In this document: piece after piece, positions 43,805 through 47,610 of the stretch
Position numbering within the stretch: the stretch's first letter is position 1
Layout of the letters: the number at the start of each line of letters is the position of its first letter
NCBI GenBank assembly: GCA_041619515.1
Contig: JBFKDW010000010.1
Location: 1-49,915 of the forward strand
Origin: Acidimicrobiia bacterium
Lineage (GTDB): Bacteria; Actinomycetota; Acidimicrobiia; Spongiisociales; SHLN01
Reading direction: 5' to 3'
Length of the DNA stretch: 49,915 nt
Notes under the pieces: model-generated
The model's database searches: none
Told to the model about the DNA's origin: nothing
What the model saw: the letters and a program-made list of their open reading frames with translations, nothing else
Translations under genes and position numbers: made by a program

Positions 43805-43808
<4 letters not shown>
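43431..43808 (+). CDS. folB: Dihydroneopterin aldolase
   Basis: [39 protein letters not shown] before GTG 43431. Confidence 0.9.
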
Positions 43809-44908
<1,100 letters not shown>

Positions 44909-45767: not shown

Positions 45768-46619
45768 GTGGCAGACGACGAGATGCCGGTCGACGAGGAG
45801 CACTTCGAATCCATTCCGTGGAGTGCGCTCATCCCGCAGGAACGTGATCGACCGTGGATGGTGTACGTTGCCGCGGCGTCGCTCGTGGCACTGATGGTGG
45901 GCGTGCTGGCTGCTCGCAGTCTTCGCACCACGTCGCCCGGAACCGGGCCGGAGGCCGCGCCCGCCCCGGTGGTGCCCGCCACCACGCCGGTGGCGCCTCC
46001 AGCTTCGGTGCCGCCGATGTCCGAGGCCGATCTGCTGGCGGAACTGCAGCCCGGCGACCAGGGCCCGGAATCAGCTGCCATGCGCGCAGAGTGGTTTGTC
46101 ACCGACTATTTCACCGAGGATGGGGCCGGTGGGCGGGAGTCGGAGCTCGCAGCCGCCCTGGGACGCCCGGCGCCCGCGGCCCGGCTGGATGCCACCACGT
46201 ACGTTGAGTGGGCCCGTGCCTGGGACGTCGTCTCCGAAGGAGATGGTCGGTTTCGCGTGCTGGTGGCGTTTCGCTCCATCACCGCCACCGATGCCGGCTT
46301 TCGGCGCGGCCTGGTCCGGGGGGTTGCGGTTCGGGTCCGGGTCGACACCAACGGCGGGACGCGTGTGGTCGAGGTCCCGGAGCCCGCCGAGCTGCCGGCC
46401 GCTCCGGCGCCGGCAGGCCCGCCCGATCCGGTGACGCTCCCGGCCGAGGTCGGCCGCCGGGCCCTCGAGTCGGCGTCGGTCTGGGACGGTGAGGCCACGG
46501 TTGTGGAGGGCTCGCACGACGACGGCGTCTGGCGGGTTCGCATCGACGTTGTCGACGAAGCCGGCAGTGTGTGGCCGATGGTCGTGTGGGTGGAGGACCC
46601 CGGCAATCGAGTGCCGTGA
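45768..46619 (+). CDS. Hypothetical single-TM protein with Pro-rich linker and extracytoplasmic domain
   Basis: Acidic N-terminus, TM segment WMVYVAAASLVALMVGVLAA, Pro/Ala linker, globular C-terminus; TACCTT 6 nt before the GTG. Confidence 0.7.
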   Translation: MADDEMPVDEEHFESIPWSALIPQERDRPWMVYVAAASLVALMVGVLAARSLRTTSPGTGPEAAPAPVVPATTPVAPPASVPPMSEADLLAELQPGDQGPESAAMRAEWFVTDYFTEDGAGGRESELAAALGRPAPAARLDATTYVEWARAWDVVSEGDGRFRVLVAFRSITATDAGFRRGLVRGVAVRVRVDTNGGTRVVEVPEPAELPAAPAPAGPPDPVTLPAEVGRRALESASVWDGEATVVEGSHDDGVWRVRIDVVDEAGSVWPMVVWVEDPGNRVP

Positions 46620-46629
46620 GCTGTGGACG

Positions 46630-46845
46630 CGCACGAGCCCCGGCGGGGGACGTGGGTGGCCCAAGCCCCGGCCGCTGGCCGGTTTCCCGGTCGGCGGCCG
46701 TTGGGTCTTGGTCCGGTGAAGGCGCGAGGCCTTCGGTTGAGGTCTTGCGACCCCTGTGCAATCGTCGGCTGCCGTGGCCCGATTCCGACGGGACACCGTG
46801 GTGCCTCGACGTTTCGTCTCCTGGTCCTCTCGACCGCACAGGAGC
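46630..46845 (-). ncRNA. Candidate structured small RNA of unassigned family
   Basis: Dense helices; 12-bp helix (46831-46842 with 46753-46764) that has G-U pairs only on the minus strand; GCAA and GAAA tetraloops on the minus strand; no downstream minus-strand gene. Boundaries approximate. Confidence 0.55.
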
Positions 46846-46923
46846 TATCGGTAGCGGCGAATAAATCTTGAGCCTGCGGTTCTGTGACTCAATGGTGGGT
46901 GTCTCGTCGCTACCCTCTGGCGA

Positions 46924-47610
46924 ATGTGGAGAGACCTCATTGTCGACCTCGACCTTCCGCCCGCCGGGGAGATACTCCTGGTAGGAGAAGACGTCGCAGA
47001 TATCGATCTTCCCGTTGGCACCGGCCGGCGGTTCGACAACGGTCAGGTGGCGCTGGTCACCAGGGGCGATCCACCGCCCGAAGACGCCAGGCCGTCGGCT
47101 ACCGGGCTGGCCGCCAACAGTCTCGATCTGGCGGTTCTGCGCGACGCGGCGGGCTCGGTGACCCATCTCCGCAGCTTGCTCGCCGAGATCTACCGGGTCC
47201 TCAAGCCGGGTGGTGGACTGCTCTTGACTGAGTTCGACGCCGCCACACTGCTGGACTCGCGTCCCCAGCAATACCCCCAGTTGCTCCTGTCGACGATGTA
47301 CCCGCGGGTTGCCCGGTACCTACTCGACCGTCATCCGCGCCAGATGGACATCGGAATGGGCCTGGTGAAGGCCGGCTTCAGGGACGGCGACTCCTACAGC
47401 CTCGACTTTCCGCTCGGCCATTTCCGCGACTACCAGGCATACGCCGATTCGGTCGCAGTGGAGGGATGGCGCGGCATGGAGCTGCTGTCAGCCGAAGAGC
47501 TCGACGACCTGCTCGACCGGCTTCCCGAGCTGATGAAAGCAGTGGCTCCCGCCGGAGAGTTCGACGACGTCGAGCCGGTCACCGTCGCCAGAGCGTACAA
47601 GCCGGTTTAG
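46924..47610 (+). CDS. Class I SAM-methyltransferase-like protein with degenerate motif I
   Basis: LAANSLDLAV...LAEIYRVLKPGGGLLLTE; no clear GxGxG; TACCCT 7 nt before the ATG. Confidence 0.7.
   Translation: MWRDLIVDLDLPPAGEILLVGEDVADIDLPVGTGRRFDNGQVALVTRGDPPPEDARPSATGLAANSLDLAVLRDAAGSVTHLRSLLAEIYRVLKPGGGLLLTEFDAATLLDSRPQQYPQLLLSTMYPRVARYLLDRHPRQMDIGMGLVKAGFRDGDSYSLDFPLGHFRDYQAYADSVAVEGWRGMELLSAEELDDLLDRLPELMKAVAPAGEFDDVEPVTVARAYKPV

Follow-up and report, generated by a model that had tools for sequence, protein, structure and literature searches.

A candidate structured small RNA, probably WhiG-dependent, with a narrow distribution in uncultured Acidimicrobiia

The Locus and Its Gene Neighborhood

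The window, i.e., the whole stretch of 49,915 nucleotides of Acidimicrobiia DNA analyzed here, holds a 300-bp gap bounded by two plus-strand genes, one ending at 46619 and the other starting at 46924, within which a candidate RNA gene lies on the minus strand. The convergent neighbor of this candidate (45783–46619, plus strand, start inferred) encodes a membrane-anchored protein that belongs to no Pfam or NCBIfam family and is found in 11 of 13 related loci at 48–62% identity by tblastn. Its divergent neighbor (46924–47610, plus strand) encodes a class I SAM-dependent methyltransferase (Pfam Methyltransf_11) and adjoins the RNA in all 13. The order of genes at the 13 related loci is alpha/beta hydrolase, membrane protein, RNA (on the opposite strand), methyltransferase, and MoaA, and the element is present there as a single copy at this fixed position. 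An earlier reading made from the sequence alone (hereafter the sequence-only reading) had regarded a cis-acting riboswitch as unlikely on the grounds that no minus-strand gene follows the RNA; indeed, the next gene downstream is the convergent, plus-strand gene of the membrane protein, an arrangement kept in the same 11 of 13 related loci. The neighboring genes give no clue to function.

The methyltransferase gene is preceded by TACCCT, a -10-like box located 7 nt before the ATG, and by no Shine-Dalgarno sequence (46911–46926, plus strand); its mRNA is therefore probably leaderless and transcribed from a promoter of its own, outside the RNA element. The word GCTACCCTC found before this gene is seen again in G007, a related genome that lacks the full RNA (see below). 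Elsewhere in the window, a single plus-strand ORF (43805–44908) carries both HPPK (FolK) and GTP cyclohydrolase I (FolE) domains, and is thus an apparent fusion of folate enzymes.

Architecture of the RNA

R1, a covariance model built from six copies of the element, matches positions 46841–46653 of the minus strand with 173.9 bits (E 4e-43), and another model, R2, does so with 146 bits. The 5′ end of the RNA is predicted to lie at about 46841–46838, 6–7 nt past the -10 box described in the next section, which is also the distance at which the first conserved helix begins, and the conserved body measures 167–192 nt across copies. Overall, the fold strings together separate hairpins, and the two ends of the RNA do not pair with each other.

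In the covariance alignment, the RNA opens with a 5′ domain (46838–46757, minus strand) made of a closing helix and of further helices stacked within it. The closing helix pairs UGC.GGUCG with CGAU.GCA (46838–46831 with 46764–46757) and is formed in 98.8% of its alignment cells, and the inner helices join 46827–46819 with 46777–46767. One column pair of the domain, 15–78, changes from G-C to A-U in g3, one of the two genera that carry the RNA (see below). The interior of the domain allows alternatives, with 58% of cells paired for a small hairpin and 69–79% for a rod extension. The domain is topped by an apical hairpin, GGCAC-CACG-GUGUC (46805–46792, minus strand), in which two of the five pairs show compensatory changes (from GGCAC/GUGCC to GUUGC/GCGAC), and whose loop is UUCG or UCCG in 6 of 12 relatives.

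Downstream of the 5′ domain, the hairpin GGGUC-GCAA-GACCU (46753–46740, minus strand) keeps its GCAA loop and four of its five pairs invariant in 12 of 12 copies. It is followed by an optional hairpin, GAAGGC-CUCGC-GCCUUC (46734–46718, minus strand), that is found in 8 of 12 copies and missing from the other 4, and is capped among relatives by GCAA (six) or GAAA (one). The RNA continues with a long 3′ arm (46714–46658, minus strand) that ends in a GAAA tip (CCGG-GAAA-CCGG) and whose ten foot base pairs are all invariant. Higher in this arm, column pair 156–175 is C-G in five copies, U-A in five and U-G in two, while column pair 152–179 is G-U in seven copies, A-U in three and G-C in two; the tip itself is GAAA (eight), GCAA (three) or GCGA (one).

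All the helices listed in the sequence-only reading are present where it had placed them. These are a helix of 12 pairs (46842–46831 with 46764–46753), two of them G-U (G46835-U46760 and G46834-U46761), the GGCAC(C)...GGUGUC hairpin at 46805–46792, GGUC-GCAA-GACC at 46752–46741, the pairing of GAAGGC with GCCUUC (46734–46729 with 46723–46718), and the long arm with its CCGG-GAAA-CCGG tip (46714–46658). Not all of them belong to the conserved structure, however: the window's copy alone has the GACG-AAA-CGUC hairpin and the four outermost pairs of the first helix, and GAAGGC/GCCUUC is the hairpin that four of the 12 copies lack.

The 3′ end in the window is uncertain, since the hairpin that possibly forms it is weak and a terminator scan accepts no canonical terminator there, either in the window or in two relatives. 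This terminal hairpin, CACG-UC-CCCC-GCC-GGGG-CU-CGUG (46654–46632, minus strand, from folding), has no U run and, with -12.3 kcal/mol (z 0.04), is no better than shuffled sequences. It is strong (10–12 bp; -20.8 to -25.3 kcal/mol, z -2.7 to -3.5) in the four full-length copies that were folded from g1, the genus of the window, and weak in the one copy folded from g3.

A truncated copy of the gene is present in genome G002 (L007:1371–1636, minus strand, the same as L017:1501–1637, minus strand). It has kept the promoter and the entire 5′ domain but lacks the optional hairpin and the long 3′ arm, its GCAA hairpin leading directly into a strong terminator hairpin (-29.8 kcal/mol). In view of this copy, the 5′ domain is a candidate for the core of the RNA.

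A WhiG-Type Promoter and a Putative WhiG Regulon

Upstream of the RNA, the sequence-only reading had recognized boxes resembling a promoter of the FliA/WhiG type, and this proposal gains from the comparison of copies. The -35 box (46872–46869, minus strand), of WhiG/sigma-28 type, is CTCA in 13 of 14 copies and TTCA in the remaining one; CTCA is identical to the -35 query published for WhiG1 (PMC12871210). The -10 box (46852–46845, minus strand), which is ACCGATAG in the window and GCCGATAG in most relatives, conforms to [G/A]CCGATA[G/C] in 14 of 14 copies, that of the window opening with A, not G. The spacer between the two is exactly 16 nt long in all 14 copies, whereas its sequence is only 53% identical. 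Boxes and spacing match the layout of WhiG/FliA promoters, i.e., a -35 box CTCA or T(A/C)AA, 16–17 nt, and a -10 box GCCGA(TAA); the consensus queries of published surveys are T(A/C)AA-N16-GCCGATAA and CTCA-N16-17-GCCGA (PMC12871210; PMC8325347).

The genome encodes the corresponding sigma factor, WhiG, with 348.4 bits against the NF004935 equivalog model (cut-off 343) and 270 bits against TIGR02479 (cut-off 189.6). Flagellin was not found in this genome, which indicates that WhiG is not flagellar here. A search of the genome for TCAAG-N15-17-CCGATA returned 11 sites, to be compared with a mean of 1.85 (maximum 9) for permuted -35 words and of 2.9 (maximum 14) for permuted -10 words; enrichment of the WhiG motif in the genome is moderate.

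The motif is located just upstream of five genes, encoding a PilT-like ATPase (C11:19859–19885, minus strand), CpaB/RcpC (C28:27432–27458, plus strand), an HD-GYP-type protein (C18:27404–27429, minus strand), a GAF-GGDEF cyclase (C26:27570–27596, plus strand), and a 97-aa protein (C3:12229–12255, minus strand). It stands 8 nt before the start of the HD-GYP-type gene, which is possibly leaderless, and the 97-aa protein, without a Pfam family, has two CxxC pairs in its N-terminus that were read as a zinc ribbon. Upstream of cpaB, both boxes are kept and the spacer differs in genomes of both RNA-bearing genera. Taken as a set, the motif-preceded genes resemble a WhiG regulon devoted to pili and to the turnover of c-di-GMP. 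Three more matches (C4:62406–62432, minus strand; C49:21984–22010, plus strand; C20:17344–17368, plus strand) have no ORF of at least 70 aa within 250 nt downstream, and could be further non-coding RNA genes or chance occurrences. WhiG is also encoded in a third genus of the family, g2, from which the RNA is absent, so that presence of the sigma factor does not predict presence of the RNA.

Folding and Conservation

Folded as a single sequence, the minus strand of the element is slightly more stable than its shuffled controls (z -2.13, a stability reached by 4 of 200 shuffles). This control, envisaged in the sequence-only reading, does not by itself raise the element above chance, and the case for an RNA therefore rests on comparison with relatives. 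In 36 pairs of nine loci, the RNA body has a mean identity of 0.77 between copies and 0.69 between genera, where the adjacent methyltransferase gene has 0.48 (0.40 between genera) at third codon positions and 0.80 (0.74 between genera) at positions 1 and 2. The RNA body is thus conserved like codon positions 1 and 2 of the gene next to it.

Pairing was evaluated for a 54-pair structure over the 12 distinct full-length copies, i.e., 618 pair cells, the copies being close kin and their alignment having been fitted to the model; the row of the truncated G002 copy was left out, its terminator having been forced onto the 3′ arm. Standard pairs occupy 95.5% of the 618 cells, as against 23–47% when the 3′ partners are slid by 1–3 columns. 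Changes on both sides with pairing kept are seen at four pairs (10 cells), values matched by 1 of 500 and 0 of 500 shuffles, respectively. As 33 of the 54 pairs never vary and the measure of further pair types lies within the range of shuffles (241 of 500), covariation support is thin.

Further evidence concerns the strand and the coding capacity. The alignment folds with -56.0 kcal/mol on the minus strand vs. -38.9 kcal/mol on the opposite one (alifold), the structure conservation index being 0.68 vs. 0.51, and 48 cells that are G-U on the minus strand would read A-C on the other. The hairpin caps include a GCAA that is invariant on one hairpin, the GAAA, GCGA, or GCAA of the arm, and the UUCG or UCCG found in half of the 12 copies. 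Indels of 1, 2, and 22 nt between copies break every reading frame, and none of the ORFs across the RNA region matches any family. The comparison of copies thus shows purifying selection acting on the sequence as a minus-strand, non-coding RNA fold. The stand-alone structured minus-strand RNA put forward in the sequence-only reading accordingly finds backing in the conservation of the element, the helix-keeping substitutions, the G-U pairs, the GNRA and UNCG loops, and the frame-breaking indels, and remains a prediction of comparative analysis.

Distribution Among Relatives

A DNA search of 41 related genomes returned matches in the family of the window, plus two short partial matches elsewhere that the covariance models did not confirm. 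Within the family, R1 detects a single copy per genome in 7 of 14 genomes, namely in 5 of 8 genomes of g1 (including that of the window), 2 of 2 of g3, and 0 of 4 of g2. For two of the three RNA-less genomes of g1, the gene of the neighboring methyltransferase is also absent from the assemblies, which are incomplete. In the third, G007 (L118:300–470, minus strand), a rearrangement has affected the locus on the upstream side of the methyltransferase gene; a minus-strand gene follows, and the RNA has left only a remnant similar to its first ~25 nt. A pattern scan of metagenomes gave ten loci, eight of them real and the other two inside a protein-coding gene. This brings the total to 12 distinct full-length copies and the truncated copy of G002. 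Two loci of Acidimicrobiia type, L082 and L094, are filed as 'uncultured Gammaproteobacteria bacterium', labels that look wrong.

Over a 151-genome sample of the order, R1 matched the seven family genomes only, in addition to two matches of about 22 bits, and over a 151-genome sample of the class, R2 matched only the genome of the window. An exact-pattern scan of 185,579 species genomes yielded 82 stretches, of which 80 were searched with R1; five reached full score and are family genomes already found (identical scores), and another, L104, is at chance level (19.5 bits). In these searches, nothing credible was found outside the family of the window, and the RNA is confined to two genera among the genomes searched.

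The equivalent gap in g2 is occupied by a different element of about 180–215 nt, on the same strand and conserved among three to four genomes (L119:1244–1426, minus strand; L120:1214–1428, minus strand; L121:1448–1658, plus strand; L122:1213–1427, minus strand). Its end is formed by a strong GC hairpin; it has no match in Rfam, and no CTCA -35 box was seen. With filters off, R1 gives 4.9 bits (E 1.1) on this syntenic element, its best match in these loci, 10.7 bits, being located elsewhere. The g2 element may represent an RNA gene that has been replaced or has diverged very far.

A Small Folded RNA Predicted to Belong to the WhiG Regulon

Taken together, these data point to a real, new, narrowly distributed structured small RNA that is probably WhiG-dependent. 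The comparative evidence makes it very likely that the minus strand carries a real RNA gene. If it does, transcription is likely to depend on WhiG, as suggested by the promoter, and, if both of these hold, action by shape or by protein binding is somewhat favored. The best explanation overall, i.e., a stand-alone folded small RNA of the WhiG regulon that acts by shape, stands at about an even chance of being correct.

According to this explanation, RNA polymerase associated with WhiG, a factor of the sigma-28 family, would transcribe the single-copy gene, as suggested by the anatomy of its promoter, into a stand-alone, highly folded minus-strand small RNA of ~190–210 nt. Since the promoter is of the WhiG type, the RNA would be part of the same regulon as the Tad/type IV pilus and the enzymes that make and break c-di-GMP. 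In other actinobacteria, the WhiG regulon is released upon a fall in c-di-GMP. The RNA would then act through its shape, not through a base-pairing seed, and most likely by binding a protein, which is the more weakly inferred step of the mechanism. Shape-based action is favored because the hairpins have GNRA or UNCG caps, because no seed is visible (the accessibility profile has no run of more than five columns with a mean unpaired probability above 0.6), because the best-conserved bases sit inside helices, and because a GG-A-CC module recurs, with its A bulged or mismatched between G-C pairs. GGACC is present five to seven times in 8 of 12 copies, counts that 0–2 of 500 shuffles reach, and three times in genus g3; the window's copy has only two, a count reached by 55 of 500 shuffles.

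A bolder version of this mechanism, which we regard as quite unlikely, would make the RNA the protein-binding arm of the c-di-GMP/RsiG/WhiG switch in non-sporulating actinobacteria, produced only when WhiG is freed. In this case, the GG-A-CC modules with their bulged A would serve to bind, or to titrate, either a regulator or the holoenzyme of WhiG. If true, this would provide post-transcriptional feedback on the decision over pili and attachment, and would endow an alternative sigma factor with a '6S-like' logic that uses a different fold.

Alternative Explanations

It is improbable that no functional RNA is made and that the element is instead a conserved stretch of DNA (e.g., protein-binding sites), a short coding gene, or a product of neutral conservation among kin. 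While the carriers all belong to one family and 33 of 54 pairs are invariant, adjacent third codon positions are near saturation between genera (0.40) where the element keeps 0.69, substitutions preserve pairs, indels break every frame, and the single copy number means that the element is not a repeat. Even less credence can be given to a functional plus strand, acting as a leader or attenuator of the methyltransferase gene or as part of a read-through transcript, an explanation that is barely credible. Both flanking genes are indeed on the plus strand, which folds too (-129.2 kcal/mol, z -1.65, with 9 of 200 shuffles as good), and the opposite-strand alignment retains a column-shuffle z of -5.4. 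However, reading the element on this strand makes the alignment fold 17 kcal/mol worse with the 48 G-U cells turned into A-C, converts the GNRA and UNCG loops into non-special ones, and leaves the promoter-like boxes facing the other way, and the methyltransferase gene, being probably leaderless, would have its own promoter outside the element.

For a minus-strand RNA, the alternatives concern its mode of action. A trans-acting, base-pairing sRNA of the WhiG regulon, directed for instance at pilus or c-di-GMP mRNAs, would receive the same class of regulatory input as the sigma-28-dependent sRNAs already described (PMC10578931, PMC11187230), and it would fit with a stand-alone RNA that has its own promoter and whose short A-rich linkers between hairpins are unpaired. 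We nevertheless see it as unlikely: conserved unpaired runs do not exceed 5 nt, the loops are all stable GNRA or UNCG tetraloops, the window's copy has a private hairpin in place of the longest linker (columns 24–37), and Hfq was not found in the genome. Very improbable, in turn, is an RNA that binds RNA polymerase in the manner of 6S or Ms1, since the structure is a string of hairpins with unpaired ends and no central bubble, the flanking genes are not those of a HAD-IB hydrolase and an oxidoreductase, 6C RNA is absent from the 49.9-kb window, and a housekeeping regulator of RNA polymerase would not be limited to two genera. In favor of such an RNA are a length close to that of 6S (~180–200 nt), the ability of Ms1 homologs to evade sequence searches (PMC9130861), and the fact that the Rfam 6S model finds no 6S RNA in the genome, although this model also misses a Corynebacterium control.

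Significance

So far, predictions of WhiG regulons in Actinomycetota have concerned only promoters before protein genes (PMC8325347, PMC12871210). A textbook WhiG promoter before an RNA gene would add a riboregulator to a pilus circuit controlled by c-di-GMP. Stable tetraloops on every hairpin and the lack of a seed point to an RNA–protein complex rather than to antisense control. With carriers in no more than two genera, the RNA has a limited general reach; as a new family of structured RNA from an uncultured and little-studied lineage, it nonetheless offers a concrete, testable object.

Comparison With Known RNAs and WhiG Targets

With Rfam 15 (4227 models), no match was obtained over the entire window at gathering thresholds. 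At E<=10, the RNA region gave three matches at chance level, with 13–16 bits against thresholds of 35–52, and at E<=1, 11 related loci gave none. A strong Rfam match would have removed the novelty of the RNA according to the sequence-only reading; no family matched.

The same reading had also pointed to Ms1, an analogy that did not withstand comparison. Ms1 is an RNA that binds the RNA polymerase core. It is about 300 nt long (about 230 nt in Streptomyces), and its homologs are known to evade sequence searches (PMC9130861). Its fold is a double-stranded, 6S-like rod that has a bubble at its center and a short hairpin at either end, and its gene is located next to those of a HAD-IB hydrolase and an oxidoreductase, with the 6C RNA gene nearby (PMC9130861, PMC6582537). 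The RNA described here does not match Rfam, has a body of 167–192 nt, and folds into separate hairpins with unpaired ends instead of a rod with a central bubble; it is flanked by the genes of a membrane protein and a SAM-dependent methyltransferase, and no 6C RNA exists in the window. As for 6S RNA itself, its central bubble, which resembles an open promoter and is closed by paired ends, is absent from the fold, and RF00013 has no match in the genome or window, a blank that says little given that the model misses the Corynebacterium control as well. What the RNA shares with Ms1 and 6S is to be a structured, stand-alone actinobacterial RNA of the abundant type and of a few hundred nt, with a length similar to that of 6S; it differs from them by the rod and bubble that are theirs, by its other neighbors, by its narrow distribution, and by the absence of any Rfam match. 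A sponge of the CsrB/RsmZ type was rejected too: a search for CsrA (PF02599) in the genome, 95.65% complete, found none, and the GGA words of the RNA are in helix strands, not in loops.

The sigma-28-dependent sRNAs of E. coli are Hfq-dependent. These FliA-dependent sRNAs, UhpU, MotR, FliX, and FlgO, are UTR-derived, act by base-pairing, and affect flagellar genes (PMC10578931), and a FliA-dependent sRNA is also reported in Campylobacter jejuni (PMC11187230). The RNA of Acidimicrobiia would resemble them as a small RNA placed under a factor of the sigma-28 family and made together with a surface-appendage regulon. It is in contrast stand-alone, far more folded, and without a visible seed, and its setting is unlike that of the flagellar sigma-28 sRNAs, with neither Hfq nor flagellin detected in the genome and a predicted regulon of pili and c-di-GMP enzymes.

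Closer parallels are found in actinobacteria. In Streptomyces coelicolor, expression of the small RNA scr1906 requires whiG; no WhiG-type promoter is present upstream of it, and an indirect effect was proposed (PMC2602773). Compared by its published description, scr1906 is like the RNA studied here an actinobacterial small RNA tied to whiG, and is set apart from it, by the same description, in that the promoter found here is itself of the WhiG type. A limited literature search found no report of a small RNA gene with a direct WhiG-type promoter. The surveys of WhiG promoters covered only 200 bp upstream of start codons (PMC8325347, PMC12871210); in text searches, 'small RNA' does not occur in PMC8325347, nor do 'sRNA', 'small RNA', or 'non-coding' in PMC12871210. 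The genes under WhiG in Rubrobacter radiotolerans are those for a type IV pilus and for diguanylate cyclases/phosphodiesterases (PMC8325347). The known WhiG target promoters thus share with the genome studied here their boxes, their spacing, and the kinds of genes that are co-regulated, and they differ in that they precede protein genes, whereas the promoter described here would drive a non-coding RNA.
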